Positions 22,871 to 37,753 of a stretch of 64,000 bases of DNA are shown here, one piece after another. Each line of letters starts with the position of its first letter. Within the stretch, counting starts at the first letter, position 1. The stretch lies in NCBI GenBank assembly GCA_963974055.1, contig CAXBCP010000001.1, forward strand, positions 191,471 to 255,470. Direction: 5' to 3'. A program made the translations under genes and the position numbers. This stretch comes from an uncultured Rhodospirillaceae bacterium (GTDB lineage Bacteria; Pseudomonadota; Alphaproteobacteria; MPNO01; UBA830). Below the pieces are notes generated by a model that ran no database searches, was not told the DNA's origin, and saw only the letters and a program-made list of their open reading frames with translations.

Positions 22871-23282
22871 CGATCAGACCCCGCATAAAGGTATTTTCGT
22901 CGTTTACGATGGTGAATGTCCATTCTGCTCGCGATACGTTGCGATGCTCCGGCTCCGTGAAGCGGCTGGGTATGTTGAACTCATCGATGCTCGGTCGTCT
23001 CACCCGATGGTCGATGAAGTAGTGAGCTACGGCTTCGACCTCGACGATGGCATGGTTGCGAAAATTGGAGACGCCTATTACGCGGGTGCGGATTGCGTCA
23101 ACGTTCTAAGTCTTCTGAGCACCCGAACGAACGGGTTCAATCGCCTGAACTACTGGATGTTCCGGTCCCGGGCATTTTCGCGATTGCTTTACCCTGTTCT
23201 GCGTTTCGGCCGGAACCTCGTTCTGCGTTTGCTCGGCAGATCAAAGATTGGGAAGACATCTAAACCTAATAAGGCCGCCTGA
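22860..23282 (+). CDS. DCC1-like thiol-disulfide oxidoreductase family protein (DUF393)
   Basis: 140 aa. The N-terminal VVYDGECPFCSRYV motif is the defining CxxC signature of the DUF393/DCC family. Confidence 0.7.
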   Translation: MYDDDQTPHKGIFVVYDGECPFCSRYVAMLRLREAAGYVELIDARSSHPMVDEVVSYGFDLDDGMVAKIGDAYYAGADCVNVLSLLSTRTNGFNRLNYWMFRSRAFSRLLYPVLRFGRNLVLRLLGRSKIGKTSKPNKAA

Positions 23283-23378
23283 TCGGCGCGTATGCCCTCA
23301 CGGTCGGGGGAACTCGTTCGCATGAATTAATCATATATTTTGCGTCACAATTATCCGCCATCCGTTAAGAAGACTGCT

Positions 23379-25394
23379 ATGAAAAAATTCCTGGTACCGG
23401 GGTATAATGGATACCGTCCTGACGTAGATGGTCTCCGGGCCGTGGCGGTCCTCTCTGTAATTCTTTTTCATATCGACGAAACTCTCGTTCCAGGCGGATT
23501 TGTGGGAGTAGACATTTTTTTTGTCATCTCCGGATTCCTGATTTCGCGCAACATCATACAAGATATTCAGCAAGACCGGTTCACAATCCTGGACTTTTAC
23601 CGGCGGCGGATTAAGCGCATCGTGCCGCCGATGCTGCTTGTGGTCGCTGCGACCGTTGTCATTGCCCAGATTATTTTGTTGCCGTTGGATGCCGAATGGG
23701 TCGCGGATTCCGCCTTATGGTCACTCGCGTCACTGGCAAACGTCTATTTCTGGCAATTTCAGGATCTCAGTTACTTCGCGGCCGACAGTAAGGAACTTCC
23801 ACTTCTTCATTTGTGGTCGCTTGGTGTCGAAGAACAGTTTTATTTCATATGGCCGCTTCTGTTGCTCATGATCGGTGCGCTCCGTCGTCCGCGGCTTCTG
23901 ATCGTATGCATCGCCGCCATTATAGTTGGTTCGTTTGTCCTGGGTGAATTGATCTTCGAGCGATCTCCCATGTTTGCCTATTACATGCTGCCGTCGCGGG
24001 CCGGAGAATTGCTGTTTGGCGCTCTGGTGGCAGTTGCGATAATCAAGAATGTCGACCGATATATTTCAAAAATTGCTGCGTTCACGATAGCCTGGTCCGG
24101 TGTGGCACTTCTGATATGGAGTTTGTTCGCGCTATCGGAAATGGACCGGTTTCCTGGGTTTAATGCGATTCCGCCCACTCTTGGGACCGCCCTTATTATT
24201 TTTGCCGGGCATTGCCAGCGCGGCATTCTTTTCCAAGCCTTGTCGGTGCGGCCTGTAGTCTGGGTTGGGCTAGTGTCCTACTCGGCGTACCTTTGGCATT
24301 GGCCGCTTCTCGCTTTCGTTAGATATGGATTTGGCGAAGTCACGCCAATTTTTGGCTTGCTTGCCTTTCTTGCGACTTTTTTGCTCGCATGGATCACCTA
24401 TCGATATGTTGAACAGCCTGCGCGGCGCATAAACGCGGCGTTTGGACGGGTTCTTACTACTCAATATTTGATACCCGCCGGCGCTCTCGGCATGGTGTGT
24501 ATGATGGCAATGTACATTGACGGATACGGCTTCCGCAATCTGATCGGGGACTACAGGCAACGACTTGAAGACAGCAAGCGACTGACGCCTTCCACGTTTA
24601 CGTTCGATTTCGTCTGCCAAAAACAACGGATTGGCGCAAAAGATCTTCTGAACGGTAGTTGCGTCGTTGGGGCGCCATCGTCCGACCCGGCAAAGTTTAT
24701 AATGTGGGGCGATTCTAATTCCAGTCATTATGTCGGCATGGTGCGCCAGTTCGCCGAGCGGGGTGGGTTTAAAGTCAGGAACGTTGCTGTCGGCGCCTGT
24801 CCGCCGATCGATGACGACCCGGAACCATTCGTAAAGTCTAAACGCCTTGCGGACTGCAGGACGTCGCTTCGCGTTATTCGGTCGGTGATCGACAAATATC
24901 CGGCGGTCATAATGGCCGCGTCCTATCCGAGTTATCGCAGTAACCCGGAGTTTCTTGAATCGTTTATGAAAACTGCGGCTCGTCTGGCACGATCGGGTAA
25001 ACCAGTGATTGTTCTCGGAAAGGTTCCGTTACTTCACCGCTTCGATCATCTGTGCCAGCAAAAATCTATCAGTTTTCCGATGCTTGTTTGTGCAAACACC
25101 AGCAATGCAATCGATCCCGACGTCGCAAGGATTAATTCCAAGCTTAAGGAATTTGCCGGCCGAACGGACGTTGTCGAGTATTTCGATGCAAATGATTTGA
25201 TTTGTCCCCGCGGTATATGTTCTGCATACGCTTCAGACGGTAAACAAATTTATCACGACGGTGACCATATCACGATGAGCGCTTCTCAGGACGTCGGGCG
25301 CAAAGTGTTTGAAACCCAAGGTCTTCCAGCTCCGTTTGGCCAAGCACTGGATTATCTGTCACGTGCGACACGCCCCGCCGTCGAGGGGGGCTGA
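23379..25394 (+). CDS. acyltransferase family 3 O-acyltransferase with C-terminal SGNH/GDSL hydrolase-like domain (OatA-like)
   Basis: 671 aa. An N-terminal ~350 aa 10-TM acyltransferase_3 domain (RPDVDGLRAVAVLSVILFH...FFVISGFLISR) is followed by a periplasmic domain with a MWGDSNSSHYV SGNH-type block. Confidence 0.8.
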   Translation: MKKFLVPGYNGYRPDVDGLRAVAVLSVILFHIDETLVPGGFVGVDIFFVISGFLISRNIIQDIQQDRFTILDFYRRRIKRIVPPMLLVVAATVVIAQIILLPLDAEWVADSALWSLASLANVYFWQFQDLSYFAADSKELPLLHLWSLGVEEQFYFIWPLLLLMIGALRRPRLLIVCIAAIIVGSFVLGELIFERSPMFAYYMLPSRAGELLFGALVAVAIIKNVDRYISKIAAFTIAWSGVALLIWSLFALSEMDRFPGFNAIPPTLGTALIIFAGHCQRGILFQALSVRPVVWVGLVSYSAYLWHWPLLAFVRYGFGEVTPIFGLLAFLATFLLAWITYRYVEQPARRINAAFGRVLTTQYLIPAGALGMVCMMAMYIDGYGFRNLIGDYRQRLEDSKRLTPSTFTFDFVCQKQRIGAKDLLNGSCVVGAPSSDPAKFIMWGDSNSSHYVGMVRQFAERGGFKVRNVAVGACPPIDDDPEPFVKSKRLADCRTSLRVIRSVIDKYPAVIMAASYPSYRSNPEFLESFMKTAARLARSGKPVIVLGKVPLLHRFDHLCQQKSISFPMLVCANTSNAIDPDVARINSKLKEFAGRTDVVEYFDANDLICPRGICSAYASDGKQIYHDGDHITMSASQDVGRKVFETQGLPAPFGQALDYLSRATRPAVEGG

Positions 25395-25418
25395 GCGGTA
25401 ACTCCTCGGACTGGCGTT

Positions 25419-25554
25419 ACCAATTAATCGCGGGAAATTTCTTCAGAAGCCGGATTGCACGAGACACTTTTGTTATCGTGAGGGTTGATTTCATATCCGG
25501 CCAGTGCCGACAGAATATTAATTGCTGTGGCGCGGTCCGCTTCCGGTACCGGGG
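25419..25554 (-). repeat. right direct repeat of the island (native 3' end of marR)
   Basis: Partner of 20797-20928; see that entry. Continuous with the intact MarR CDS. Confidence 0.75.
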
Positions 25555-25912
25555 CCAGTATCCGGCGTTGGGCCCGATCGGCGGCCTCGAACGCTGATTC
25601 GAGTGCCAGGCGTCCCTCCTCGGTCAGGAACAGGGCGTTGGCGCGCTGGTCCGCCGGGGTTCGCGACCTGGATATCATCCCCCGGTCGACCATGCGGCGA
25701 AGAACTTCAGTCAGAGTGCTGCGGTCTATCCCGCTTGCTTCCACCAGGGCGGTCTGGCTCAGTCCCGGATTCTGAAAGACGCTGATCAGGACCGCAAATT
25801 GTCGTGGGTTCGGACCGTTTTCACCGACTTCTTCACAGAACAGATCGACCGCCCGCTGCTGGCACCGTCGTATCAAGTGGCCGGCGACCGAATCGAGCTC
25901 AAAGTTCTTCAT
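25424..25912 (-). CDS. MarR family transcriptional regulator
   Basis: 162 aa from MKNFELDSVAGHLIRRCQQRA. The winged-HTH core is FAVLISVFQNPGLSQTALVEASGIDRSTLTEVLRRM. Divergent from the LLM monooxygenase gene. The ORF-track 276-aa extension is rejected. Confidence 0.8.
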   Translation of the reverse strand: MKNFELDSVAGHLIRRCQQRAVDLFCEEVGENGPNPRQFAVLISVFQNPGLSQTALVEASGIDRSTLTEVLRRMVDRGMISRSRTPADQRANALFLTEEGRLALESAFEAADRAQRRILAPVPEADRATAINILSALAGYEINPHDNKSVSCNPASEEISRD

Positions 25913-26151
25913 GGATTGTTCGAGCGTATCGGCCAAGGCGGGACCACCTGATTTCTGACGGCTGCAAATTCTGTTTCGAGAGTCTATGGGAATGCATTTC
26001 ATCTGTACACGGATTAGTCGTCGGTGTAGGGTCGCGCCCCTCTGGAACAACGATTCCGGGCGGACGTTTTCGAGCGTGGGACATAACCTGGAGCCCGCCG
26101 GCATAGCCCGAAAGCTGCGCACATACGGGCAATAATTACGGGGAGAGCGAC

Positions 26152-27207
26152 ATGGAATTCGGACTGCAATACTTTCCCTGTGTCGGTCCCGACCAGAAAT
26201 CGGGTCAGCAATATTTTGATGAGTGTCTGCGGCTGACCGAATACGCCGATACATACGGTTATTCGCATGTCCGCACGGTCGAACACTATTTTCACCCTTA
26301 TGGCGGATACAGCCCGAACCCCATTGTCTTCCTGTCGGCGTTGTCCCAGCGCACGCAGAAGGCCCGGATCGTGACAGGCGCGATTCTGCCGGTCTTTAAC
26401 AATCCGCTGAAACTTGCCGGTGAGATCGGCATGCTCGACGCGATCTGCGGCGGCCGTGCCGAGATCGGTTTCGCCCGCGCGTTCCTGCCCCATGAATACG
26501 AGCGCTTCAATATAGACCTCGATGAGAGCGTTGCGCGTTTCGATGAAGGCATGGAGCAGATCGACCTGCTTCTGACCGGCGAAAATGTCTCTCACGACGG
26601 AGAATTTCACAGCTTCAGGAACGTGACGTCACTGCCCCGGCCGACCCAGCAGCCGCGTCCGAAGTTCTGGACCGCCGCATTCACCACCCCGGAATCGTTT
26701 GAAAAGGCGGGCCGGGTCGGCAACTACATTATGGCGATTCCCATTGGCGGCTCGCAGATGGCAGAACTGATCGGCATATACCGCGAAGCATGGAAATCGG
26801 CAGGTCATGGAGGCGAGGGGCGAATTATGCTCGCTTTTCAGATGTATTGTCACGAGGACGGCGCCGAGGCTGCGCGGATCGCCCGCGGGCCGGTCAATCG
26901 CTATCTCAAGTCCCTTGTAGATGCGGCGAAGGACTGGGTCGACGGCGCCACGTCCGACAACTACAAAGGCTATGGCAAGATGATCGAGGCGCTCGATCGC
27001 GAGACGTTCGAAAGCCAGGTAGAAAAAGGTGCCGCCTGGGTCGGAACGCCCGAGGAACTGGTCGAACGGATTCGGACTTACGATCAGGAAATCGGCGGCT
27101 TTGACGATGCCTCCCTGCAGGTCAATTTTAATGATCTGTCCTATGATGAGGCCGAACGTTCCGTGAAGCTGTTCGGTGAAAAGGTAATGCCGTCCTTTGC
27201 GGACTGA
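26152..27207 (+). CDS. LLM class (luciferase-like) flavin-dependent monooxygenase
   Basis: 351 aa with a TIM-barrel LLM pattern (MEFGLQYFP..., LDAICGGRAEIGFARAF, FWTAAFTTPESFEKAG). Confidence 0.8.
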   Translation: MEFGLQYFPCVGPDQKSGQQYFDECLRLTEYADTYGYSHVRTVEHYFHPYGGYSPNPIVFLSALSQRTQKARIVTGAILPVFNNPLKLAGEIGMLDAICGGRAEIGFARAFLPHEYERFNIDLDESVARFDEGMEQIDLLLTGENVSHDGEFHSFRNVTSLPRPTQQPRPKFWTAAFTTPESFEKAGRVGNYIMAIPIGGSQMAELIGIYREAWKSAGHGGEGRIMLAFQMYCHEDGAEAARIARGPVNRYLKSLVDAAKDWVDGATSDNYKGYGKMIEALDRETFESQVEKGAAWVGTPEELVERIRTYDQEIGGFDDASLQVNFNDLSYDEAERSVKLFGEKVMPSFAD

Positions 27208-27290
27208 CCCGGCGGCACATCGTGGGTAGACAAACGGACGGTCTGACGCGACAACACCCTGAGATGGGACATGCTTAATAGGGAAGTGTC

Positions 27291-28721
27291 GTGAAGGTAA
27301 CGTTTGTCGGACACGCTTCGATCCTTGTAGAAGCTGGCGGTCTGAACATTTTGTCGGATCCTTGGTGGGCCGGTTCCTGCTTCGGTACTCAATGGTGGCC
27401 TTACCCCAAACCCGCTGTAGATGCCGTCGATCCGGAGCGGCTCGACTATATTTATATTTCGCACGGACATGCCGATCATTTGCATAACGGGACGCTCAGC
27501 CGGTTGCCGAAGACGGCGGTCTGCCTTGTCGCGCAGGAACTGAACCTGTCTGAACCGCTAAAGGGGCTCGGTTTCGAGGTAATCGAGGTCGCACCGAAAA
27601 CCGACTATGCGCTGAACGAAAAGGTGACGATTGAAATTACGCCGACGGTAAGCGGGGACAGCTTTTCGGTTATCCGTGATGATCGGCAGATATGCATGAA
27701 CATGAACGACGCGCTTCATGCGGCGCCGCGGGATATACAGACGCAAATGATCGGTTACCTGAACGCCAAGTACGGGCAGGCGGATTATATGTTCTGCGGC
27801 TTCGGCATCGCTTCGCATTTTCCGATATGTATTGAGGTCCCCGGGCGCGATCGCGATCGCACGGCGGCGGAGCGCCAGAAACATTTTAACCGGGAATGGG
27901 CGTACATCGTTCACGGGCTTGGCCCCAAATACGCCTTTCCGTTTGCTGCAGATGTCATCTTTCTCGATGAAAATATTCGCTGGGCGAATTCCGCAGTTCA
28001 TAACGGCGAACGCCCCGTCGACGTGCTGACCGGCCCGTTTGCGACGCCGCAAACCAAAGCAATCGACATATATCCGGGCTTTTCGATAGACGGGGACAAT
28101 ATAGTTGTCGACGCTCGTCATCGGCCGGTCGTCGCGGCGGAGATCGACGCCGCATTCGAGTCCGAAACCAGGATGGCCAACCGGTCGACCGCCGTTAGCG
28201 CAGACGGGGTCGAAGATCTGGTTGTCCGTCTCCGTGAGAACCTTGAGACGTGCCGGCAGTATCTGTGCGAGATTGACAACAACTACCGGTTTCTCATCGA
28301 GTTCATCGGCAATGATGCCGGCATTGAAATTTGTAAAACAGGCAACCGGCTCGATGCTTTCAGTATCAAAATTTCGGATATCGACAAGACTGACTATGCC
28401 GTCGTATTTCTGACGAAATATTCATATCTGCGGCGGTCGTTGTCCGATGAGTTCGGTCACGAAGTTCTTTCGGTGGGCTCGGGAGGTGTATTCAGATACC
28501 GCAGCCGCGCCGAAGCGGATGCCAACCTTCATGGCGAATTAATGCTTGTTCTGCGGACCCATACCGCAGCGCCGCCCAGTCGTTTTGGGGATCAGTCAAA
28601 ACTTAGGTATCAGATGAAAACCCTGGTCAAGAAGGCGCTGCGGGTTGCACTTCGCCGCCCGGCAGCGGTCGATCTATACGATAACCGGCACTGGATCAGA
28701 TATGAAGATCATAATGGCTAA
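27291..28721 (+). CDS. MBL-fold metallo-hydrolase with extended C-terminal domain
   Basis: GTG start preceded by AGGGAAG. N-terminal beta-lactamase-fold motifs: HASILVEAGG, YIYISHGHADH. A ~250 aa C-terminal extension of unknown function follows. Confidence 0.65.
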   Translation: MKVTFVGHASILVEAGGLNILSDPWWAGSCFGTQWWPYPKPAVDAVDPERLDYIYISHGHADHLHNGTLSRLPKTAVCLVAQELNLSEPLKGLGFEVIEVAPKTDYALNEKVTIEITPTVSGDSFSVIRDDRQICMNMNDALHAAPRDIQTQMIGYLNAKYGQADYMFCGFGIASHFPICIEVPGRDRDRTAAERQKHFNREWAYIVHGLGPKYAFPFAADVIFLDENIRWANSAVHNGERPVDVLTGPFATPQTKAIDIYPGFSIDGDNIVVDARHRPVVAAEIDAAFESETRMANRSTAVSADGVEDLVVRLRENLETCRQYLCEIDNNYRFLIEFIGNDAGIEICKTGNRLDAFSIKISDIDKTDYAVVFLTKYSYLRRSLSDEFGHEVLSVGSGGVFRYRSRAEADANLHGELMLVLRTHTAAPPSRFGDQSKLRYQMKTLVKKALRVALRRPAAVDLYDNRHWIRYEDHNG

Positions 28722-28736
28722 ACCGGTCGTGCCTAT

Positions 28737-29324
28737 TTACTCCCCGCCGGTTTGATATTCGACCAGATAACTGGCGTAATACTTTTGAGGGCCGGGAGCC
28801 TGCCATCTGAAGCCCTTTGCTGTCGGTAGGTAATAAACCGGCATCCATTTGAAGTTATTGGTCGAGCATTTATATTTCGTGCGGTACCATTTCTTGGCCC
28901 AGACTTTAAACGCATTTCTTGGGTGCACTTCACCGTTCACCCATACGAGTTTACGAACACTGCAAAAGAATCGAAGGCCAATCCACACTTCTTCCTTGGC
29001 CTCGAAATTTGCTTTCAGAAAACTGTGGGTTTCAATGTCCTTGACTACTGCCAGGCGCCCCCGGACCCCCTTAAATATTCGCGTGCGCGCATATTTATTA
29101 GCTGTTGACCAATTCGGCGGCATTGGCAGATCGACCCGCAGTTCAAAGTAGCTCTTGGTGTGGGGATTATAAATCGGCTTAACTGGAACGGCCGAAGAAC
29201 CGGTCCTGTGATACGCCTCGCCGGTTTCGGCGGCGAGGGCCATCCTAGCTGTCGATGAGAGAAGCAAATATGCGACTGCTACGATGACGATCTTGAGTAG
29301 GGGCGCTCGAATAGGACTGAACAT
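28737..29324 (-). CDS. secreted C-type lectin-like domain protein (low-GC orphan gene)
   Basis: 195 aa from MFSPIRAPLLKIVIVAVAYLLLSSTARMALAAE, a signal peptide. CTLD-like blocks: WSTANKY...GRLAVVKDIETHSFL and EVWIGLRFF...WVNGE. The gene is conspicuously AT-rich compared with its neighbours. Confidence 0.5.
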   Translation of the reverse strand: MFSPIRAPLLKIVIVAVAYLLLSSTARMALAAETGEAYHRTGSSAVPVKPIYNPHTKSYFELRVDLPMPPNWSTANKYARTRIFKGVRGRLAVVKDIETHSFLKANFEAKEEVWIGLRFFCSVRKLVWVNGEVHPRNAFKVWAKKWYRTKYKCSTNNFKWMPVYYLPTAKGFRWQAPGPQKYYASYLVEYQTGGE

Positions 29325-29442
29325 CAGTTCTTCTGCGGTTAGCACGATGTCTCTAAGACAGAGTATATAACGCCACCCGAAATATGTTAAGAACGGAGTA
29401 GGAGTGTATATTGCAGTTTGATTTTGTCGGGACGCCCAATTT

Positions 29443-30423
29443 ATGAAAACGCTTGTCACCGGAGCCGCGGGATTTATCGGTTACCATACCGCAACCCGTT
29501 TGCTCGACCGGGGCGACGAGGTCGTTGGTATCGATATTGTGAACGACTATTACAGCGTGGCGCTTAAAAACGCCCGGCTGGAACGGCTGAAACAGAGAGA
29601 CGGGTTTACGTTCCACAAGCTCGATCTTTCCGACCGGCAGGCCTTCGACGAAACTCGTTCGGCGATCCGTGGCGTCACCCGTGCTGTGCATCTCGCGGCG
29701 CAGGCGGGCGTCCGGCATTCGATCGAGCGGCCGTTCGACTATGTCGATGCGAACCTGGTCGCCCATATGACCGTTCTGGAATTATGCCGTCATCAGCCGG
29801 ATTTCGAACATCTGGTTTATGCCAGTTCAAGTTCGGTCTATGGCGGGAACACCAAGCTTCCATTTGCCGTCGAAGACCGCGTCGATGCGCCGGTATCGCT
29901 CTATGCGGCGACCAAGCTGGCCAATGAACATATGAGTTACAGTTATAGCCACCTTTACGGTCTTGCGCAGACGGGCCTGCGGTTTTTCACCGTCTACGGA
30001 CCTTGGGGGCGGCCGGATATGGCGCTGTATATATTCGCGGATGCCATCCTCAAAGGGCGGCCTATCGAGGTTTTCAATCATGGCGACATGAAGCGCGATT
30101 TTACCTATGTCGACGATATTGTGACGGGGGTCGTGGCGGCGCACGACAATCCGCCCTCCGCCGACCCGGGGCCGCCCCACAGGGTCTACAATATCGGAAA
30201 CAACCAATCGGAACCGTTGCTCCGCCTCATCAGCGTGCTCGAAGAGTGCCTCGGGAAAAAAGCGGAAACGATCATGAAGCCGATGCAACTGGGCGATGTG
30301 AAAGAGAGCTTCGCAGATATCGAAGCGATCCGGCGCGATCTCGGATTCGAGCCGACAACCCCGATCGATGTCGGCGTGCCGAAATTCGTCGAATGGCTCA
30401 GATCCTATAACGGGAATTACTGA
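29443..30423 (+). CDS. NAD-dependent epimerase/dehydratase (UDP-glucuronate 4-epimerase-like)
   Basis: Starts MKTLVTGAAGFIGYH, a Rossmann fold. Catalytic YAATK is present. The overall pattern matches the UDP-GlcA/UDP-GalA 4-epimerase (Cap1J/LpsL) subfamily. Confidence 0.85.
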   Translation: MKTLVTGAAGFIGYHTATRLLDRGDEVVGIDIVNDYYSVALKNARLERLKQRDGFTFHKLDLSDRQAFDETRSAIRGVTRAVHLAAQAGVRHSIERPFDYVDANLVAHMTVLELCRHQPDFEHLVYASSSSVYGGNTKLPFAVEDRVDAPVSLYAATKLANEHMSYSYSHLYGLAQTGLRFFTVYGPWGRPDMALYIFADAILKGRPIEVFNHGDMKRDFTYVDDIVTGVVAAHDNPPSADPGPPHRVYNIGNNQSEPLLRLISVLEECLGKKAETIMKPMQLGDVKESFADIEAIRRDLGFEPTTPIDVGVPKFVEWLRSYNGNY

Positions 30424-30465
30424 AGACCACCGAAGTCTGTGCCGGCCGACACTCCGCCCTGTGCG

Positions 30466-31845
30466 TCAGCCCCGCTTGATCAGATACCCGGACGAACCCC
30501 CAAGGGCGGGATGTTGCCGATCCGTATTTTTTGCAGGGTTCCCGGGAGCCGCGGGGTCGGGATTCGCAACGTCTGAATCTGCAGCGTCCGGCATCGTCGT
30601 ACGCTCTTTCGCAAGCTCCTGGCCTACCATCCATCGCGTAACCACGATAATCGCCAGCACGTGGTAATACAGGTCAAAGGTGGCGACATTCAGAAACACG
30701 CCGGCGGTGGCATACCCGACAAGGCTGACCTGCGTCATCTTCGACAGGTCGCGGGCCCATTTCAAATTCGGGCTGCCGCGCGCGAGATGGTTCGTTCGCG
30801 AACACGTGAAGAAAGCGACCGTTCCCAGCATTAGAAACAGGGTAAGACCGGGATAACCGTGTTCGCCCAGGACTTCGAAATAGATGCTGTGCGGCGCCCT
30901 GACAACCGGGGATTCCGGGTTGTAGATCGGCCACAAACGTTCCTGCGTATTGACCTTGAAACCGCCTCCCAGAAGGCGGTCGTTAGCTAGATTGATCGCG
31001 AAAAGCCATGCATCGAAACGGCCGGAGGCGGATTCGTCTTCTTCGTAGGAATCGATCGTATCCATCCTGTCGAACCACTTTTGCGGCATGAACGACAATA
31101 CGCCGACAATACAGACCGCAGCGGCAAAGGCCACCGGCAGTTTTTTGCTCGATCTGAGCCACAGGAAAAAGCCCATGGTTGAAAGCGCAAGCAGCGCCCC
31201 GCGGGAATATGTCCCGATAATGGCGGCCAGCGTCAGAAGAATCATGACGCTCAACATGTGTCGCACCCACTTGTTGGTGGCCACCAGTTGCAGATAATGC
31301 ATCAGCGGCATCGTCATGATCAGCGTCAGCGCAAGCTGGTTGTTGTCCTCGAAAAAGCTGCCGGGAGGTCCCCAGACCCGGTAGTTGCCGCCCGTCATTA
31401 TCGAAAACAGACCGCCCCGGACACCGTAAAAACCGATCGAAAACACAATCATAGCGATTAGCCAATTCAGGCGGACCTTGGTTTTGATCATTGCCAGCGT
31501 CAGAATCGTCATGATCTGGATTTTGCCGAATTCAATAAAACGCGTTTCGGCACGATCCGGCGCGAGTGCGGTAATTGTTGTTATCGCGGTCCAGGTAACA
31601 AAGAGAAACAGTACCACCGATACGGGTGATATCGGTATTCTCTTGTTCTCCCGGCTGATGGTGAACGCGATAATGGTGACAACGGCCGCAATCAGCGCGA
31701 ACTGGAAACTATAGGCGAACCCATAAGTCAGCCGATGCGGGTTCATATAGGATATCCACGAGAACAGCAGAATCCCGGTCCACGGCTGCTTGAATATCAG
31801 AGGGATCGAGCCGAAAACGATAAGCGTAATCAGGATATCGCGCAT
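30466..31845 (-). CDS. O-antigen ligase / Wzy-like polymerase family protein (exosortase A-associated O-glycosylation ligase type)
   Basis: 459 aa, about 12 TM, with a periplasmic loop (YSRGALLALSTMGFF..., IYFEVLGEHGYPG). Architecture is as in the XrtA-locus ligase family. Divergent from the glycosyltransferase at 32028. Confidence 0.7.
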   Translation of the reverse strand: MRDILITLIVFGSIPLIFKQPWTGILLFSWISYMNPHRLTYGFAYSFQFALIAAVVTIIAFTISRENKRIPISPVSVVLFLFVTWTAITTITALAPDRAETRFIEFGKIQIMTILTLAMIKTKVRLNWLIAMIVFSIGFYGVRGGLFSIMTGGNYRVWGPPGSFFEDNNQLALTLIMTMPLMHYLQLVATNKWVRHMLSVMILLTLAAIIGTYSRGALLALSTMGFFLWLRSSKKLPVAFAAAVCIVGVLSFMPQKWFDRMDTIDSYEEDESASGRFDAWLFAINLANDRLLGGGFKVNTQERLWPIYNPESPVVRAPHSIYFEVLGEHGYPGLTLFLMLGTVAFFTCSRTNHLARGSPNLKWARDLSKMTQVSLVGYATAGVFLNVATFDLYYHVLAIIVVTRWMVGQELAKERTTMPDAADSDVANPDPAAPGNPAKNTDRQHPALGGSSGYLIKRG

Positions 31846-32027
31846 CGGTCAGTCGGTCTTTCCTGCAGGTTGACATGCGGAAAAAAGCCGTCGCGTTTCC
31901 GCTTTCATCCAAACGTCAGTTCCACTAAAGATAACGGGTTCCGCCAAAAATGTGTAATCGTTCGGAATTATATCGCTGATCCAGCTGTATATTATCACCA
32001 GTACGTATTGAATATGAATATCCTCGC

Positions 32028-33374
32028 ATGAAGATATTATTAGTCTCCTGGTATTTCCCTCCCTGCAGTACCATGGGTGCTCTTCGTGTCGGGAAATTCG
32101 CGAAATACCTCGTCGGCGAAGGACACGACGTCCGCATCGTCTGCGCCAAAGACCAGCCTTACGCGATGGATCATCCCGTCGAGGTTCCGGAAGATTTCAT
32201 TTACCGGACGATCTGGCGCGATATCAACTGGTTGCCCGCCAGCATCCAGCGGGTACGCGCAGGCATCAAGTCTTTACTTTCCGGGAAAACCCGCGCGCCT
32301 GGCGTCGGGGCGCAGGATGCACCGCCGGCTGCGGCAAACACGCCGCACCAACCGAATGGCATTCTCCGCCTGATTCTGAATTTCTATCAGAACCTGACGA
32401 ACATTCCCGACGGTATGATTGGCTGGCTGTTACCAGCCTTGCGGGCGGGGCGCAAGGCGACGAAGGGCTGGAAGCCGGATGTCGTTTTTGCCAGCGCGCC
32501 GCCATTCACGACCCTGATCGCAGGGCGTATTATTGCCAAACGCGCAAAGGCGCCGCTTGTGATCGAATATCGCGACCGGTGGATCGAAGATCCCTACGGT
32601 CTCGAAGACCCGAAATTCCGCCAGTGGCTCGATCGCAGAATCGAAGAATGGTGCGCCCGTCCGGCCGTCGGCGTGGTGACGGTCTCCGATCCCTGGGCGG
32701 AGGATTACCGCCAGCGGTGGGGAAAGCCCGTTGCGGTTGCGTATAACGGCTTCGATCCGGACGATGTTGCCAAACTCGACGACGTGCCGCCTTCAGGATC
32801 CGACAAACTGAAAATTCTGTATACGGGTATCATATACCCCGAGCGCCGTGACCCGACCCCTTTATTCGAGGCACTGTCCAGACTGGGCGCCCGGCGTGAC
32901 GAGATTTCCGTAGATTTTTACGGGGCAAATGTCGGCCGGCTCGAGGGGGCGGTTGCCGGACATGCGCAGCAGGACATCGTGTCGCTGCGGCCCGGCATAC
33001 CGTTTGCGGAGGCCCTGAAACTGCAGCGTCAGGCCGACGTTCTTCTGCTGTTGCAATGGAACGACCCGCTCGAAGCAGGGAATGTGCCGGGGAAACTGTT
33101 CGAATACCTGGCCGCCCGGCGTCCCGTGCTGGGTATTGGTTTCGAGCAGGGCGTACCGGCGCGTATTCTTAGGGAACGCAATGCCGGGCGTGTTCTAAAC
33201 GATCCCGATCAGATTGCCGCTTACCTTACCGAGCTTCTCGACCAGAAAAAACGGAATGGCAGCATAGACCTGCTGCCGGCCGATGTATCCGCCGGTCTTT
33301 CCCGGCCGGAGCAATACAGGCATATCGAACGCATGCTTGGAGACGCCGGCCAGTTACGCGCCGACGCGCGCTGA
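32028..33374 (+). CDS. glycosyltransferase (GT-B fold, GT4-like)
   Basis: Starts MKILLVSWYFPPCSTMGALRVGKFAKYL. The C-terminal sugar-donor half has the E..KLFEYLAARRPVLG motif. Confidence 0.7.
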   Translation: MKILLVSWYFPPCSTMGALRVGKFAKYLVGEGHDVRIVCAKDQPYAMDHPVEVPEDFIYRTIWRDINWLPASIQRVRAGIKSLLSGKTRAPGVGAQDAPPAAANTPHQPNGILRLILNFYQNLTNIPDGMIGWLLPALRAGRKATKGWKPDVVFASAPPFTTLIAGRIIAKRAKAPLVIEYRDRWIEDPYGLEDPKFRQWLDRRIEEWCARPAVGVVTVSDPWAEDYRQRWGKPVAVAYNGFDPDDVAKLDDVPPSGSDKLKILYTGIIYPERRDPTPLFEALSRLGARRDEISVDFYGANVGRLEGAVAGHAQQDIVSLRPGIPFAEALKLQRQADVLLLLQWNDPLEAGNVPGKLFEYLAARRPVLGIGFEQGVPARILRERNAGRVLNDPDQIAAYLTELLDQKKRNGSIDLLPADVSAGLSRPEQYRHIERMLGDAGQLRADAR

Positions 33375-33428
33375 TGTTGCGTATTTCCGCCGAATTGGGG
33401 GCGAACGTGACAGTTCCGGCGCAATAAA

Positions 33429-34880
33429 ATGAGTGTCCGGAAATCGCTGCTGATATCGTTCGGTGAAAAATACACCGTCCTTCTGATCTCGATCGCCTCG
33501 ACGATGATTCTGGCGCGCCTTTTGTCGCCGGCTGAAATCGGGATTTTTTCGGTCAGCGTGGCGGTTGTAGGCATAGCCCAGATGGTCCGCGACTTCGGCG
33601 TCACCCAGTATCTGATTGTCGAACGGGATTTGACGCGGGACCGAATCCGCGCGGCGTTCGGCATTACCATCGTTATTTCATGGTCGCTGGCGGCGGTGCT
33701 TTACTTTGGTCGCGACACCCTTGCTGATTTCTATTCGGAACCGAAGCTTCATACTGCGCTGTCCGTGCTGTGTTTCAATTTCATCCTGATTCCGTTCGGC
33801 AATCCCGTCCTTTCGCTGTTGCGCCGGGACATGGCGTTTGGAACGCTCTTCCGGATCAACACCCTGACGGCGATTATCCGGGAATCCACGGCGGTGGGTC
33901 TGGCATTTGGCGGTTTCGGGTTTATGAGTCTCGTTTGGGGTTCGTTTGCCGGGGTCGCCGCGACCGCCGCACTGGCGACACTCGCCCGGCCTTCCCAGGC
34001 CTGGGTGATGCCGGGGTTCCGGGAGTGGCGCCGGGTACTGAAATTCGGGCTCCCGGCCAGCGCCACCGCCTTCGTTTCGGAAATCGGCGCGAGCACGGCG
34101 GACCTGGCGCTTGGACGTATTCAGGGTTTCGCCGAAGTGGGCCTGTACAGCCGGGCCATGGGGCTGGTGAACCTGTTTCACCAGAACATCATGAGTGCGG
34201 TCAGGTGGGTATCTCTGCCGGCGTTTGCCGCCGACGAGCGCGACGGCAAGGCGCTTGAGGAAAATTATCTGAAGTCGGTCGGTTATGTTACCGCCGTGGC
34301 CTGGCCGTTCTACGGATTCCTCTGTCTGATGGCGTTTCCGATCATCCGGATTTTGTTCGGCGATCAATGGGATGAAAGTGTGCCGCTCGTCAGAATTCTG
34401 GCAATCGCCGGTATGATCGGCGCGACATGGAATCTCGCCGGGCAGGTGTTACTCGTGATCGGACTGGTCCGGAAAGTGTTCTGGGCGGAAGTGATTATCC
34501 AGAGCGCCCGCGTCCTGTTAATTATCGCGGCGGCGTTTCACAGTCTGGAACTCGTGGCGTGGGCGCAGGTCGTTACGTATTCAGTCGGTTTTTCCATCTA
34601 CCAGTTTTATCTGGGCCGCAATTTCAATATTACGCTGGTCGATGTGTTTCGAGCGGTCTGGAAGAGCCTGCTGGCGGCGATCTTCTCCGTGGTCGGCCCG
34701 GCGCTTGTCGTCCTGGCCTGGGGATTGACGCCGGACAATCTTTTTCTGTCGCTATTCGCCGCGTCCCTCGCCGCTGCGGTTGGCTGGCTGGCCGGGCTCT
34801 TCATCGTCAATCATCCGATGCGTATTGAAATACAATCGCTTATCATGCGGAAAACCAAATCCAGCCAAGGGGTCGATTAA
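33429..34880 (+). CDS. Wzx-type oligosaccharide flippase (MOP superfamily polysaccharide biosynthesis protein)
   Basis: 483 aa, about 12-14 TM, with a Wzx-like N-terminus (KYTVLLISIASTMILARLLSPAEIGIFSV). Confidence 0.75.
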   Translation: MSVRKSLLISFGEKYTVLLISIASTMILARLLSPAEIGIFSVSVAVVGIAQMVRDFGVTQYLIVERDLTRDRIRAAFGITIVISWSLAAVLYFGRDTLADFYSEPKLHTALSVLCFNFILIPFGNPVLSLLRRDMAFGTLFRINTLTAIIRESTAVGLAFGGFGFMSLVWGSFAGVAATAALATLARPSQAWVMPGFREWRRVLKFGLPASATAFVSEIGASTADLALGRIQGFAEVGLYSRAMGLVNLFHQNIMSAVRWVSLPAFAADERDGKALEENYLKSVGYVTAVAWPFYGFLCLMAFPIIRILFGDQWDESVPLVRILAIAGMIGATWNLAGQVLLVIGLVRKVFWAEVIIQSARVLLIIAAAFHSLELVAWAQVVTYSVGFSIYQFYLGRNFNITLVDVFRAVWKSLLAAIFSVVGPALVVLAWGLTPDNLFLSLFAASLAAAVGWLAGLFIVNHPMRIEIQSLIMRKTKSSQGVD

Positions 34881-34882
34881 CA

Positions 34883-35659
34883 GTGTTACCGCCAGTATTG
34901 GGATATGTCATCGGCTTTGCTCTGTTGGCCGTTCTTGTGTTGCTTTTATATGTGCTCTGGAAAGTCAGAGCAGTGCATTTAAAAGTCTATGACGTCATGG
35001 ATGCCGTTCGGCAAACTCAGGACAGAGACCTGGTAAATCATTTTCAGCAGTCCCAGCTGGTGCGTATTCTGGAGCATGAACTGGATCTGGACAGACCGCT
35101 GCCCGCATTGCGCGGGTGGGCGGCCTCTCCGGACTTTCTACTTGTCATAACACGGCATGCACGCGACCGGCGCCCGAAGATTGTCGTCGAATGCAGCTCA
35201 GGGGTTTCGACAATCGTTCTTGCGCGTGTCGCGCAACTCAACGGCCAAGGGCACGTTTATAGCCTGGAACACGATCCCGTTTTCGGTGCGCAGACCCGGC
35301 AGGAACTGCATGCCCGGGGCTTGGCGGAATGGGCGACGGTGATCGACGCTCCCCTTACGGAACATCGTATCGATGGCGATGCATGGCCGTGGTACAGCCT
35401 CGAAAATCTTCCCGTCGACGAAATCGATCAGATCGTCATTGACGGCCCACCCTACTCGGTAGGACCGCTCGCGCGCTATCCGGCCGGGCCGCTATTGTTC
35501 GGTAAGGTGCGAGAGGATGGCGCGGCGTTTCTGGATGATGCCGACCGGGTCGAGGAAACCGAAATTTCCGAACGCTGGGTGCGGGAATTGTCCGGGTGGA
35601 AAATGAACACGGAGTATTGCGAGAAAGGGTGCAGGCGGTTTACCCGGAGAGGCGATTAA
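34883..35659 (+). CDS. membrane-anchored class I SAM-dependent methyltransferase (Methyltransf_24-like)
   Basis: GTG start. An N-terminal TM helix (VLGYVIGFALLAVLVLLLYVLW). The MTase core is IVVECSSGVSTIVLARV...GHVYSLEHDP. Overlaps the next gene by 1 nt (TAATG). Confidence 0.55.
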   Translation: MLPPVLGYVIGFALLAVLVLLLYVLWKVRAVHLKVYDVMDAVRQTQDRDLVNHFQQSQLVRILEHELDLDRPLPALRGWAASPDFLLVITRHARDRRPKIVVECSSGVSTIVLARVAQLNGQGHVYSLEHDPVFGAQTRQELHARGLAEWATVIDAPLTEHRIDGDAWPWYSLENLPVDEIDQIVIDGPPYSVGPLARYPAGPLLFGKVREDGAAFLDDADRVEETEISERWVRELSGWKMNTEYCEKGCRRFTRRGD

Positions 35660-36612
35660 TGCCAGCAAGCTCTCCAGCAAAGGTTTCCGTCGTTATCCCG
35701 TGTTTCAATGACGGTGCCTATCTGGCGGAATCTGTCGGGTCCGTCCTGGCGCAACAGGGCGGTTTCGAACTGTGCGAGGTGCTTGTCGTCGACGACGGCA
35801 GCGACGATCCGCAGACGCTGGAGGCTCTTACCGAAATCGCAAAGCATCCAAAGGTAATAACAGCACCCAACGAAGAGCAGAAAGGCCCTGGAGGCGCCCG
35901 CAATACCGGAGTCAGACGCGCGACCGGCGACTGGATCGTATTTCTGGATTCCGACGACATCCTGTGCGACGGCAGTATCGATGCGCGACTGCGCGCCGCC
36001 GCCGGTTTTCCGGGGAGCCGTTGGGTGGGCGGGGATTTCATCATCCTGAACGAAGATGGCATCCTTGAATCGGAAACGTTTTTCAGAAGCCGCCCACAGC
36101 CGCGCAGGGTGGTGAACGCTGCATTCGAAACCGGCGCCCCGATACTGCTGTCTCGACCTGTGCGGGAATTCATTGAGAACCCGCCTACGAACATGTGTTG
36201 TACGATGGCGAAAAAAGACCTGATCGAGGCTGTTGGCGGGTTCGACCCGACGCAGCGCTTGCAGCAGGATTTTCATCTGTTTATTCGAATGGCGTATTAC
36301 GCTGATTTTGTCTTCGTCCCGCAGTCGGTGATGCATTACCGGCTGCACTCCGGAAATTCGACCCGGTCGTCACTGAATACGCTGCGCTGGCGGGAAACAG
36401 CCTGCCGGAAATTGCTGGCGGATGCGACGTTCGCGACATATGCGGCCGCGCTTAAACGAAAAATTTCGGAGGTTAACCGCGAGATCTCGGTTGAGCTTGC
36501 TGTCAGCGGATCGCAATGGTCGTCAATGCAGGCGGCCCTGCGGTCCCTTGTGGCCTGCCCGGAAAATATGGCGGGCTGGAAAAGGCTGGCAGCCAGCCTG
36601 ATTTTCAGATGA
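35659..36612 (+). CDS. glycosyltransferase family 2
   Basis: Starts VSVVIPCFNDGAYLAESVGSV. GT-A DxD-containing blocks are VVDDGSDD and IVFLDSDD. Confidence 0.8.
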   Translation: MPASSPAKVSVVIPCFNDGAYLAESVGSVLAQQGGFELCEVLVVDDGSDDPQTLEALTEIAKHPKVITAPNEEQKGPGGARNTGVRRATGDWIVFLDSDDILCDGSIDARLRAAAGFPGSRWVGGDFIILNEDGILESETFFRSRPQPRRVVNAAFETGAPILLSRPVREFIENPPTNMCCTMAKKDLIEAVGGFDPTQRLQQDFHLFIRMAYYADFVFVPQSVMHYRLHSGNSTRSSLNTLRWRETACRKLLADATFATYAAALKRKISEVNREISVELAVSGSQWSSMQAALRSLVACPENMAGWKRLAASLIFR

Positions 36613-37708: not shown

Positions 37709-37753
37709 CCGGTTGCCCGATACGCCGGATATACGTTGCGGGCGCCCGGCGTT

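Follow-up and report, generated by a model that had tools for sequence, protein, structure and literature searches.

Genomic setting of the gene

The window, that is, the whole 64-kb stretch of DNA that was analyzed, is dominated by a super-locus for exopolysaccharide (EPS) of the XrtA/PEP-CTERM type, and a gene for a C-type lectin-like domain (CTLD) protein lies inside it. The features that frame this gene were as follows:

19220..62112, no strand: XrtA/PEP-CTERM exopolysaccharide super-locus, ~43 kb (NCBIfam matches above cut-off)
19220-20716: chondroitinase-B/Pel9A-like lyase
23379-25394: Acyl_transf_3-SGNH O-acyltransferase
27291-28721: MBL-fold gene adjoining the CTLD gene
28737..29324, minus strand: coding sequence of the CTLD protein, 195 aa plus stop, ATG at 29324 (ORF list and translation)
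29443..30423, plus strand: NAD-dependent sugar-nucleotide epimerase/dehydratase-family gene, divergent and conserved immediate neighbour (Pfam Epimerase/GDP_Man_Dehyd)
30466..31845, minus strand: TIGR03097, [quoted passage not shown] (DUF5935 + Wzy_C; 520.7 bits vs 188)
37754..38848, minus strand: WecB, non-hydrolysing UDP-GlcNAc 2-epimerase (TIGR00236, 277.6 bits vs a cut-off of 210)
58541..60124, plus strand: exosortase A (XrtA) fused to an EpsI-family C-terminal domain (TIGR03109, 331.9 vs 208)

Two parts could be distinguished in the super-locus, a variable one with lower GC3 (~19-38 kb) and the conserved XrtA core (40.7-62.1 kb), and a TRAP transporter abuts its left edge. Matches above the NCBIfam cut-offs were obtained for TIGR03100, 03101, 03098, 03099, 03027, 03007, 03018, 03015, 03006, 03019, 03087, 03109 and 03108; the XrtA-EpsI gene also scored 124.8 bits with TIGR02914 (cut-off 42.8), and the NCBIfam matches of the epimerase gene fell under the equivalog cut-offs. 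The preliminary description had placed the CTLD gene at the boundary of the locus, before the first EPS gene. This position was not borne out, as polysaccharide genes were found on both sides: the lyase and the O-acyltransferase on one, and on the other the epimerase, the TIGR03097 ligase, glycosyltransferases, Wzx and WecB, along with the complete XrtA system, which extends to 62.1 kb.

A simple tail search detected no PEP-CTERM tail in any ORF of the window, and for this reason no substrate gene in it could be paired with the CTLD gene. A known plasmid was also considered as the replicon and was rejected, given that megablast of the 26.0-33.5 kb segment returned no match among PLSDB plasmids. 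The host is a marine, uncultured bacterium resembling Rhodospirillaceae.

Gene call and start site

The open reading frame fills exactly 28737-29324 on the minus strand in the ORF list and its translation, as initially described. The product and the public protein P0001 share 100% identity; the latter has 202 aa since public gene callers start it at a GTG seven codons upstream of the ATG. Two features were annotated upstream:

29343..29345, minus strand: alternative GTG start giving the 202-aa form, with in-frame codons VLTAEEL ahead of the ATG
29362..29390, minus strand: sigma-70-like promoter match TTAACA-17-TATACT, 10/12 (consensus scan, pattern match only)

The ATG was preferred over the GTG because a purine-rich GAAGAA, read from the sequence, lies 4-10 nt upstream of it. 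The sigma-70-like match is located ~38 nt upstream of the ATG, within the 118-bp divergent intergenic region common with the epimerase gene, and was one of 3 sites returned by the consensus scan vs 1.2 expected in the scanned region. Inspection by eye of the same intergenic region gave only a weak partial match to a promoter of the sigma-54 type. The overlapping ORFs of the plus strand are regarded as spurious, as the conserved protein frame is that of the minus strand. An identical CTLD gene was found on several independent metagenome contigs.

Predicted export signal

29232..29324, minus strand: predicted Sec signal peptide, residues 1-31 (MFSPIRAPLLKIVIVAVAYLLLSSTARMALA) (sequence features)

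The signal peptide proposed in the preliminary description was confirmed at the level of sequence features: R6 and K11 precede a hydrophobic core (I12-L22), A29-L30-A31 stand before the likely cleavage point, and a hydrophobic N-terminus was present in 53/56 members of the family. In the AF2 model, residues 8-31 form a helix that is followed by a low-confidence linker. The protein is thus predicted to be exported by the Sec route and cleaved after A-L-A, leaving a mature form of ~17 kDa. The lipobox cysteine was absent from the N-terminus as read from the sequence, and neither a PEP-CTERM tail nor a lipobox or other secretion signal was found in the protein. It ends in ...LVEYQTGGE directly after the domain, with no PEP motif, transmembrane helix or basic tail, and its relatives terminate in EYPTGK or in low-complexity tails rich in K/P/A/E.

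C-type lectin-like fold

28746..29183, minus strand: C-type lectin-like domain, residues 48-193
28974..28985, minus strand: WIGL motif, residues 114-117, CTLD core hallmark (family alignment)
28962..28964, minus strand: Cys121, just after WIGL, at a non-canonical position (56/56 sequences)
28866..28868, minus strand: Cys153, close to canonical position C2, where the long-loop region ends (56/56; profile alignment)

The match to Pfam PF00059 (Lectin_C) was marginal (25.1 bits vs a gathering cut-off of 22.6; E=3.1e-5; residues 87-156), and a precomputed match to this model is on record for many homologs. No NCBIfam model matched the protein and no dedicated Pfam model was found for the family; the second Pfam match, to Lpp-LpqN (E=0.075), was discarded as noise. 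The sequence blocks pointed out in the preliminary description were recovered (WIGL at 114-117, W128-V-N-G, W72..A75 and G89-R-L-A), the spacing quoted there being only approximate. Across an alignment of 56 family sequences, W114 and G116 of the WIGL motif were invariant, I occurred in 54/56 and L in 51/56, and among the core tryptophans W128 and W174 were invariant and W72 nearly so. The structure model matched CTLDs only, so that a non-lectin fold was not seen, and displayed two helices, two antiparallel sheets and the long-loop region. The model shows a single domain with the canonical long-form C-type lectin-like fold.

The cysteine pattern is particular to the family. Exactly two cysteines were present in 55/56 sequences, C121 and C153 being the only ones of the protein studied here, and the four canonical cysteines (C1-C4 and C2-C3 pairs) were not present in the protein; by the inferred mapping, A79 stands at C1 and V188 at C4. 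Some CTLDs are known to do without the canonical disulfides. C121 and C153 are predicted to form a disulfide.

Loss of calcium- and sugar-binding residues

28869..28889, minus strand: residues 146-152, W-Y-R-T-K-Y-K, where the EPN/QPD triplet of canonical CTLDs aligns (alignments)
28797..28805, minus strand: W174-Q175-A176 at the canonical WND position, the Ca2+-ligand Asp being replaced by Ala

The search for calcium- and carbohydrate-binding residues suggested in the preliminary description was negative. The EPN triplet falls on W146-Y-R in the alignment with SIGNR1, and the QPD falls on K150-Y-K in the hhalign comparison with a QPD-bearing bacterial repeat, so that W-x-R or K-Y-K takes the place of the triplet; no conserved acidic or amide ligand was found in columns 143-152 of the 56-sequence alignment. 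In the WND columns, W was present in 56/56 sequences, followed by Q in 40 or N in 14, and by A in 55/56. Sister bacterial CTLD repeats still have QPD...WND. These alignments show that the residues with which true C-type lectins ligate Ca2+ and carbohydrate have been lost in the family. A family-specific aromatic and basic surface is strongly conserved in the long-loop region (W142, W146, R148, M-P-V-Y-Y 161-165, W174 and K181). The domain is very basic (pI about 10, net charge about +13 to +17), the family medians being a pI of 9.96, a net charge of +13 and a content of 17% W/Y/F.

Distribution and association with exosortase A loci

The gene had been described as an orphan, a label that could not be sustained: a word-indexed search returned 111 homologs, and an exhaustive search retrieved 233 cluster representatives at E<=1e-30, 408 at E<=1e-10 and 1458 at E<=1e-3. 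All taxonomically assigned genome loci with homologs were alphaproteobacterial (one labelled only "Proteobacteria bacterium"), and one homolog (WP_043642760.1) belongs to the cultured Caenispirillum salinarum AK4. A literature search on bacterial C-type lectins and on lectins in exosortase/PEP-CTERM systems found nothing relevant to the family.

The neighbourhoods of homologs were surveyed in 28 loci with 10-kb flanks. At least one core XrtA marker was present within 10 kb of the homolog in 21/28 loci, where near-duplicate loci (L005/L006, L008/L009, L016/L018) reduce the independent lineages to about 24 or fewer, not 28; the binomial probability of 21/28 is 2e-30 against a generous chance rate of 2%. 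Four further loci share WecB, epimerase or lyase genes, L012 and L027 had no XrtA marker within reach, and L030 was an exception, with its homolog in an unrelated nucleoside-catabolism context. The independent, Pfam-labelled contexts of L028 and L029 agreed with the XrtA association. The usual neighbours were a TIGR03097 Wzy_C-type ligase, WecB or GT4: a TIGR03097-like gene occurred within 10 kb in 14/28 loci (10/10 of the neighbours tested passed the cut-off of the model), and a WecB-like gene in 13/28, often 33-265 bp from the CTLD gene. The gene immediately adjacent varied among loci (epimerase, WecB, GT4, TIGR03097, FemAB or AsnS-like). A gene of ~580 aa, present in 10 loci and directly downstream of the homologs in L008, L009, L028 and L029, was considered as an obligate partner and rejected, being absent from the 64-kb window.

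At closer range, 160-219 bp separate the epimerase (75-89% identity) from the CTLD gene in L003-L006, and the order epimerase-CTLD-luciferase-like-MarR is kept in relatives with CTLDs of only 49-65% identity; the MBL-fold gene at 27291-28721 is missing from these syntenic relatives. For the CTLD, identity to L003 was 65%, vs 67% for TIGR03097 and 55% for the lyase in L005. The epimerase and the luciferase-like protein of L003 were 89% and 86% identical, and the luciferase-like protein and WecB of L005 84% and 87%. These values indicate that divergence of the CTLD has kept pace with that of the glycan-specific genes, while the flanking enzymes stay at 84-89%.

The family is associated with XrtA loci, recurrently and across divergent genomes. 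It is a sizeable, unstudied alphaproteobacterial family within XrtA/PEP-CTERM exopolysaccharide clusters and, apparently confined to Alphaproteobacteria, is a lineage-specific accessory rather than a core XrtA component.

Proposed role and alternatives

The reading we favour, to which we give about an even chance, is that the protein, very basic and rich in aromatic residues, is an accessory of the XrtA EPS systems of Alphaproteobacteria that binds glycan independently of Ca2+. We infer its ligand, final location and physiological role as follows. After export, C121 and C153 would form a disulfide. The basic domain would then bind the polysaccharide made by its own locus without Ca2+, by aromatic stacking and charge, either in the periplasm or in the cell-surface matrix. 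Finally, the protein would assist in handling or retaining the polymer, so that more of the EPS stays with the cell and less is released, or alternatively would present it to the TIGR03097 ligase. Such a putative, Ca2+-independent binding of the cell's own XrtA-linked polysaccharide is plausible, and specificity for a glycan is indirectly favoured by the divergence rate of the CTLD, which matches that of the glycan-specific genes. The polymer is probably anionic, which is only a guess made because of the basic domain and the sugar-nucleotide epimerase genes of the locus. In floc-forming bacteria, secreted proteins make the EPS of XrtA systems cell-bound (PMC9850573).

A domain of this kind could have a protein rather than a glycan as its partner within the XrtA pathway, as in the CTLDs of NK receptors, tetranectin or CD93. 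Candidates would be PEP-CTERM substrates en route to the exosortase, the TIGR03097 ligase at its periplasmic face, or the co-occurring glycanases of the beta-helix/Pel9A-like type, of which the CTLD would be a regulator or inhibitor. Where the Ca2+ site is missing, the ligands of CTLDs are often proteins, lipids or minerals and not sugars, which weighs against the glycan reading. We nevertheless consider this reading rather unlikely, given that no protein partner was constant across loci, where the immediate neighbour varies, that the very basic, Trp/Tyr-rich surface is more typical of carbohydrate or polyanion binding, and that the simple tail search disclosed no PEP-CTERM substrate gene in the window. 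Distinctly doubtful, too, is the bolder proposal that the family is an unrecognised, lineage-specific XrtA component with a new Ca2+-independent site on the CTLD scaffold, acting as a lectin-like adaptor that physically couples EPS to the cell surface or to PEP-CTERM proteins, or as a glycan-recognition subunit that sets the substrate specificity of TIGR03097.

Binding to an envelope glycan that is not specific to the EPS, such as peptidoglycan or LPS, would make the protein an anchor or spacer for the trans-envelope EPS export apparatus. This idea is modelled on lectins of the RegIII type, which bind peptidoglycan, and is quite improbable: an invariant ligand like peptidoglycan predicts slow evolution, whereas the CTLD evolves as fast as glycan-specific genes, and the EPS export genes (TIGR03027, 03007 and 03018) are usually not its immediate neighbours.

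Base composition and proposed horizontal transfer

The GC content of the CTLD gene was 0.503, vs 0.593 for the window, and 588-bp windows as low in GC amounted to 4.0% (1.2% when 20.4-25.4 kb was left out). The lower GC noted in the preliminary description therefore stood, while the implied singularity did not, since the ORFs at 21245-22870 (0.496) and 23379-25394 (0.515) are equally low and GC3 is depressed across the whole 19-38 kb part of the super-locus. With the 40 genes of the window as reference, composition remained outlying once computed, the gene having the second lowest GC3 (0.561) and the third lowest CAI (0.516). In a comparison restricted to the CTLD domain, homologs were GC-poorer than their flanks in 22/25 loci (mean -4.5 points, p=4e-6). 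The GC3 deficit against flanks was -12.7 points for the gene in the window and -3.2 points as the family norm; because the former exceeds the latter, recombination may have replaced the variable region in the window by another allele.

These values could also be read as the trace of a horizontally acquired orphan lectin or adhesin for foreign (host or prey) glycans, placed beside the EPS locus by chance. Besides GC, GC3 and CAI among the lowest in the window and a GC3 deficit above the family norm, this reading can draw on the absence of the MBL-fold gene from syntenic relatives, which implies that the junction has seen an insertion, and on the predominantly eukaryotic occurrence of CTLDs. Against it, the family is large and alphaproteobacterial, its low GC is family-wide, the epimerase/luciferase-like synteny persists at 49-65% CTLD identity, 21/28 loci are XrtA-linked, and the canonical sugar-binding residues are absent. 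Hallmarks of mobility were also lacking: scans near the gene found no tRNA, no mobile-element genes and no flanking repeat (only short two-copy chance matches), and Rfam returned nothing over 27-31 kb. Horizontal acquisition, as first proposed, is thus very improbable, conservation of synteny and the link to XrtA having largely refuted it; the best explanation is that the gene is vertically maintained as an accessory to alphaproteobacterial XrtA loci.

That 28737-29324 could be a chance ORF or a decaying remnant has next to no probability, atypical codon usage being all that speaks for it, and is ruled out by full-length conservation of the protein across hundreds of clusters with invariant core residues, along with a confident structure model, identical copies on several independent metagenome contigs and the promoter-like site and purine-rich stretch upstream: it is a real gene.

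Relation to known systems

Environmental and wastewater bacteria form flocs and biofilms by means of exosortase/PEP-CTERM systems (PMC9850573). The workings of these systems are largely conjecture, including the attachment target of XrtA, the action of the TIGR03097 "ligase" and what decides between binding of EPS to the cell and its release. A small, soluble, easily expressed lectin-fold protein of XrtA loci would offer an experimental handle, as a probe for the polymer, a bait for partners or a target for deletion, and cultured carriers of the family exist, e.g. Caenispirillum salinarum or Pelagibius sp. The family would also add a well-populated bacterial branch to a domain family known mainly from work on animals, and a branch with a different disulfide and a lost Ca2+ site bears on the evolution of CTLD binding sites. 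Should the protein prove to be merely a generic periplasmic one, the gain would be a modest improvement in annotation.

Like the XrtA-associated families (TIGR03097-03101, 03006, 03007, 03015, 03018, 03019, 03087 and 03108), the CTLD family is defined by co-location with exosortase A EPS loci, yet the protein itself is not a PEP-CTERM protein. Matrix lectins that hold the cell's own EPS include LecB and CdrA, both with Psl in P. aeruginosa, and RapA with acidic EPS in Rhizobium leguminosarum. They are only functional analogies to the role proposed here, with unrelated folds; LecB and RapA are Ca2+-dependent, and none of the three is known to be encoded inside an XrtA locus.

Compared with animal C-type lectins (collectin-11, langerin, ASGPR, DC-SIGN/SIGNR1, Mincle and CD23; PF00059), the protein lacks EPN/QPD, has W-Q/N-A in place of WND and two cysteines (C121 and C153) instead of the C1-C4/C2-C3 pairs, and is bacterial, single-domain, without neck or stalk, very basic and encoded in an EPS locus. 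The Ca2+-independent CTLDs (Dectin-1, RegIIIalpha, SPL-2, NKp80 and NKR-P1) share only 13-20% identity with it and differ in cysteine pattern, and none of them is bacterial or linked to polysaccharide synthesis. Among bacteria and phages, CTLD-related folds without a Ca2+ site are found in the C-terminal domains of intimin/invasin, in DGR proteins such as Mtd and in FGE-sulfatase.

The exhaustive search also retrieved bacterial Cys-free CTLD repeat proteins (P0112, 960 aa; P0239, 555 aa; P0172, 1128 aa). These share with the protein an N-terminal strand of bacterial type (NP..G.YYE vs YNP.TKSYFEL), G.RG.LA, WIGL and a C-terminal GY.(I/V)EY(P) strand, but they keep QPD/EPN and WND, have no cysteines and are arranged in tandem, whereas the protein is single-domain, motif-degenerate and has two cysteines. 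It is also highly basic and without a sorting tail, unlike P0172, which carries the PEP-CTERM signal as two tails; CTLDs therefore also serve as exosortase cargo. Comparison with these repeats by hhalign gave probabilities of 98.6% and 96.7%.

Genomic context of the CTLD gene

A complete exosortase A (XrtA)/PEP-CTERM exopolysaccharide (EPS) system was identified at 40687-62112 of the window, its genes being called by NCBIfam matches above cut-off. The gene for a protein with a C-type lectin-like domain (CTLD) was located to its left, among the following features:

21245-22870: 541-aa protein (GC 0.496, CAI 0.513)
23379-25394: Acyl_transf_3-SGNH acyltransferase (GC 0.515, CAI 0.497)
27291-28721, plus strand: MBL-fold protein, 476 aa
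28737-29324, minus strand: CTLD gene, ATG at 29324, 195 aa
29443-30423, plus strand: epimerase, divergent from the CTLD gene
30466-31845: Wzy_C gene (TIGR03097, a putative O-glycosylation ligase associated with exosortase A), one gene from the CTLD gene, 520.7 bits against a cut-off of 188
40687-62112: XrtA core, with hydrolases 1 and 2 (TIGR03100, TIGR03101), acyl-CoA ligase (TIGR03098), PLP decarboxylase (TIGR03099), export protein (TIGR03027), chain-length determinant (TIGR03007), tyrosine autokinase (TIGR03018), ATPase (TIGR03015), deacetylase (TIGR03006), FemAB-family protein (TIGR03019), stp1 glycosyltransferase (TIGR03087) and amidotransferase (TIGR03108)
58541-60124: XrtA fused to an EpsI-family domain

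Genes for a GT4, a Wzx flippase, a methyltransferase, a GT2, a GT1, WecB and a beta-helix protein occupy the interval between the TIGR03097 gene and the XrtA core. The other side of the CTLD gene carries the MBL-fold protein, a luciferase-like monooxygenase, a MarR regulator, the acyltransferase, a DCC1-like protein, the family-less 541-aa protein and a chondroitinase-B/Pel9A-like beta-helix lyase, up to a left edge at approximately 19.2 kb marked by a TRAP transporter. Since polysaccharide genes flank it on both sides, the CTLD gene is an internal member of a super-locus of about 43 kb and does not mark the boundary of the EPS locus, where the preliminary description had placed it. A simple tail search detected no ORF for a PEP-CTERM substrate in the 64-kb window, and the CTLD protein itself, as it has no such tail, is not one. 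Within the core, hydrolase 2 and the acyl-CoA ligase are separated by a 235-aa ORF (42754-43461, plus strand) without a Pfam or NCBIfam match, and a stretch of about 1.5 kb between the tyrosine kinase and the ATPase (52906-54439) was unannotated; the equivalent position in one related locus (L028) encodes a 493-aa product with only faint Pfam hits to BBP2_2 and Porin_4 (outer-membrane beta-barrel).

Association of CTLD homologs with XrtA loci

Twenty-eight loci, recovered solely through the CTLD protein, were compared with the neighbour proteins of the window over a reach of 10 kb. At least one core marker of the XrtA system was found in 21 of them; if any gene is generously allowed a 2% chance of falling within 10 kb of such a locus, the binomial probability of this count is about 2e-30. 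Three pairs of loci were near-duplicates, leaving about 24 independent loci, and the conclusion was unchanged. Within the same reach, a TIGR03097-like gene was present in 14/28 loci and a WecB-like gene in 13/28, and all ten TIGR03097-like neighbours that were tested scored above the curated cut-off (360-536 bits). The immediate neighbour of the CTLD gene was the epimerase in L003-L006 (160-219 bp), WecB in L013, L014, L015, L017, L020 and L025 (33-265 bp), TIGR03097 in L010, L019, L021, L023 and L026 (146-229 bp), a GT4 in L008, L009, L016, L018 and L029, and FemAB in L024. Among the loci with no core marker in reach, L005, L006, L014 and L017 share the WecB, epimerase or lyase genes of the window, L012 contained only a Wzx, and L027 is a 6.5-kb contig. 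The real exception was L030 (NCBI GCA_028277845.1), whose CTLD homolog (10001-10549, 42% identity) has genes for radical-SAM proteins, purine biosynthesis and nucleoside catabolism around it; polysaccharide genes were absent over the 10-kb reach.

In four loci (L008, 10459-12204; L009, 10477-12216; L028, 10713-12458; L029, 10560-12293), the next gene downstream of the CTLD gene shares its strand and encodes a conserved protein of some 580 aa, which was also found in L004, L005, L006, L016, L018 and L025, ten loci in total. The protein is absent from the window and resembles asparagine synthase only faintly (TIGR01536, E=9e-7, well short of the cut-off).

Predicted export signal, fold and binding site

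Public gene callers start the CTLD protein at a GTG seven codons upstream of the ATG, giving a 202-aa product (P0001) that is 100% identical across the shared part. The N-terminus (MFSPIRAPLLKIVIVAVAYLLLSSTARMALA/AE) resembles a Sec signal peptide, as had been proposed, with basic residues at positions 6 and 11, a hydrophobic core of 11 residues and A-L-A preceding the likely cleavage point; no lipobox cysteine could be read in it. A hydrophobic N-terminus was found in 53 of 56 relatives, and in the AF2 model residues 8-31 are helical and followed by a low-confidence linker.

The domain scored barely above the curated cut-off of Pfam Lectin_C (25.1 vs. 22.6 bits, E=3e-5), and no NCBIfam model matched the protein. 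The best PDB sequence matches were SIGNR1/CD209b, CD23 and NK-receptor CTLDs, weak with a single sequence (E=0.04), the SIGNR1 match reaching E=3e-5 with the family profile. As to the motif blocks quoted in the preliminary description, WIGL (114-117), W128-V-N-G, W72..A75 and G89-R-L-A were recovered, although the quoted spacing was merely approximate. By profile, fold and core motifs, the protein is thus a CTLD, and this assignment, taken alone with the association with XrtA loci, is held with high confidence.

The Ca2+/carbohydrate-binding residues, which had been singled out for checking, were located by two independent alignments. In the SIGNR1 alignment with the family profile, the last aligned position pairs W142 with the Trp of "YWNRGEPN", so that EPN falls on W146-Y147-R148; the profile alignment to a QPD-bearing bacterial CTLD repeat (P0112; probability 98.6%) sets QPD on K150-Y151-K152 and WND on W174-Q175-A176, the latter position agreeing with an alignment to an EPN-bearing repeat of P0172. 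In the family columns (n=56), W146 was conserved in 55 members, R148 in 44 and A176 in 55, column 175 held Q in 40 and N in 14, and no conserved acidic residue was found in columns 143-152. Under either alignment, the ligands of Ca2+ site 2 (Glu/Gln, Asn/Asp, Asp) are gone in the family, while sister bacterial CTLDs retain them. The cysteine pattern also departs from the canonical one: the only two cysteines, C121 (four residues past WIGL) and C153 (near canonical C2), are invariant, exactly these two being present in 55/56 members, and A79 and V188 seem to occupy the places of canonical C1 and C4. A C121-C153 disulfide may form instead, which would fit export. The protein is a CTLD by fold and, lacking the EPN/QPD and WND motifs, does not qualify as a Ca2+-dependent C-type lectin.

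The family is strongly basic (median pI 9.96, net charge +13; +17 in the window protein), rich in aromatic residues (approximately 17-19%, including 6-8 Trp), and carries a conserved, family-specific long-loop segment (W142, W146, R148, M-P-V-Y-Y, W174, K181). In some close homologs (P0009, P0013, P0016 and L003 9896-10603), the EYPTG domain end is followed by a C-terminal extension, 30-60 residues of low complexity with abundant Lys, Pro, Ala and Glu; the window protein has no such extension.

Proposed role

Following Sec export and disulfide formation, the CTLD protein would bind the polysaccharide of its own locus independently of Ca2+, through aromatic stacking and charge, and would help to retain or hand over the polymer, so that EPS is kept cell-bound or presented to the TIGR03097 ligase. 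As a whole, this explanation is given an even chance. The polymer is probably anionic, a guess from the basic domain and the sugar-nucleotide epimerases of the locus. Functional parallels, with unrelated folds, are offered by LecB with Psl and by RapA with acidic EPS. In floc-forming bacteria, secreted proteins make the EPS of XrtA systems cell-bound (PMC9850573). Among the rival readings, binding of proteins, namely those of the XrtA pathway or co-occurring glycanases, is considered unlikely, and binding of peptidoglycan or LPS to anchor the apparatus distinctly improbable.

Distant relatives show other architectures: P0112 (960 aa) and P0239 (555 aa) are Cys-free tandem CTLD-repeat proteins keeping QPD...WND motifs, and P0172 (1128 aa), perhaps a gene-caller fusion of two neighbouring genes, has canonical EPN/WND CTLD repeats, dockerin-like segments and two PEP-CTERM tails, an instance of canonical CTLDs serving as exosortase cargo. 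Neither Pfam nor NCBIfam has a family dedicated to the CTLD clade, and full-text literature searches found no paper linking C-type lectins with exosortase or PEP-CTERM systems. The family has a known fold, a changed binding site and putative disulfide, and a genomic role that is new and consistent, and offers an accessible entry point to a secretion and EPS system that is still poorly understood.

Distribution, base composition and history

The preliminary description read the gene as an orphan, possibly a lectin of foreign origin. A word-indexed search nevertheless recovered 111 homologs, down to 31% identity and nearly all of 170-250 aa, a few named "C-type lectin domain-containing protein" by NCBI (Caenispirillum salinarum, Rhodospirillales and Alphaproteobacteria MAGs), and an exhaustive profile search of 1.84 billion cluster representatives yielded 233 at E<=1e-30, 408 at E<=1e-10 and 1458 at E<=1e-3. 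The 25 loci from GTDB species genomes were all alphaproteobacterial except L018, labelled only "Proteobacteria bacterium"; named groups were Rhodospirillales, Kordiimonas, Emcibacter, Pelagibius, Caenispirillum, and Sphingomonadales and Hyphomicrobiales MAGs. The window organism is an uncultured marine Rhodospirillaceae-like bacterium, and its CTLD protein has identical counterparts in ENA, Tara and NCBI MAG data.

The low GC content that had been noticed was confirmed, the gene remaining an outlier when composition was properly computed: GC was 0.503 (0.593 in the window), only 4.0% of 588-bp windows being as low (1.2% excluding the 20.4-25.4 kb block), and GC3 (0.561) and CAI (0.516) were the second and third lowest among 40 window genes, which served as codon-usage reference. 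It was not the single such gene, ORFs 21245-22870 and 23379-25394 being equally atypical, and GC3 was approximately 0.55-0.72 across the whole 19-38 kb part of the locus vs. 0.70-0.82 elsewhere. Such depression of GC3 is typical of the variable, structure-specific part of polysaccharide loci. The domain was also lower than flanking ORFs in GC in 22/25 genomes (mean -4.5 points, Wilcoxon p=4e-6) and in GC3 in 17/25 (mean -3.2 points, p=0.012); the GC deficit is thus a property of the family, in keeping with the abundance of Lys, Tyr, Phe, Asn and Trp in the protein. The window copy exceeds this norm (GC -8.3 points, GC3 -12.7 points), so the variable region, including the CTLD allele, may have been exchanged by recombination at some time.

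Recent horizontal acquisition was contradicted by gene order: epimerase, CTLD, luciferase-like and MarR genes are conserved in L003-L006, where the CTLD proteins are just 49-65% identical, and near the CTLD gene there were no significant flanking repeats and no integrase or transposase genes, nor any tRNA in the whole window. The order is broken in the window by the MBL-fold gene, convergent with the CTLD gene across a 15-bp gap; it has no counterpart in L003-L006, in which the CTLD and luciferase-like genes are direct neighbours, and looks like a lineage-specific insertion. Identity was 65% for the CTLD protein relative to L003, 67% for TIGR03097 and 55% for the Pel9A-like lyase of L005, whereas the epimerase (89%) and luciferase-like protein (86%) of L003 and the luciferase-like protein (84%) and WecB (87%) of L005 were better conserved. 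The CTLD protein is thus as diverged as glycan-specific genes while flanking enzymes stay at 84-89%, an indirect argument for a specificity tracking polymer structure. The foreign-lectin reading is accordingly very doubtful, and the gene itself is no anomaly; that it is a non-functional ORF has a negligible probability.

In the 118-bp region between the CTLD and epimerase genes, a sigma-70-like sequence precedes the ATG by 38 nt (pattern match only), and Rfam gave no matches on either strand. Plus-strand ORFs overlapping the CTLD gene were regarded as spurious, since protein-level conservation follows the minus-strand frame. GC is lowest in the window at 20400-25400 (GC 0.47-0.53; CAI 0.50-0.51), and composition makes this block a stronger candidate for recent import than the CTLD gene; neither Pfam nor NCBIfam matched its 541-aa protein, and none of the related loci carried a homolog.
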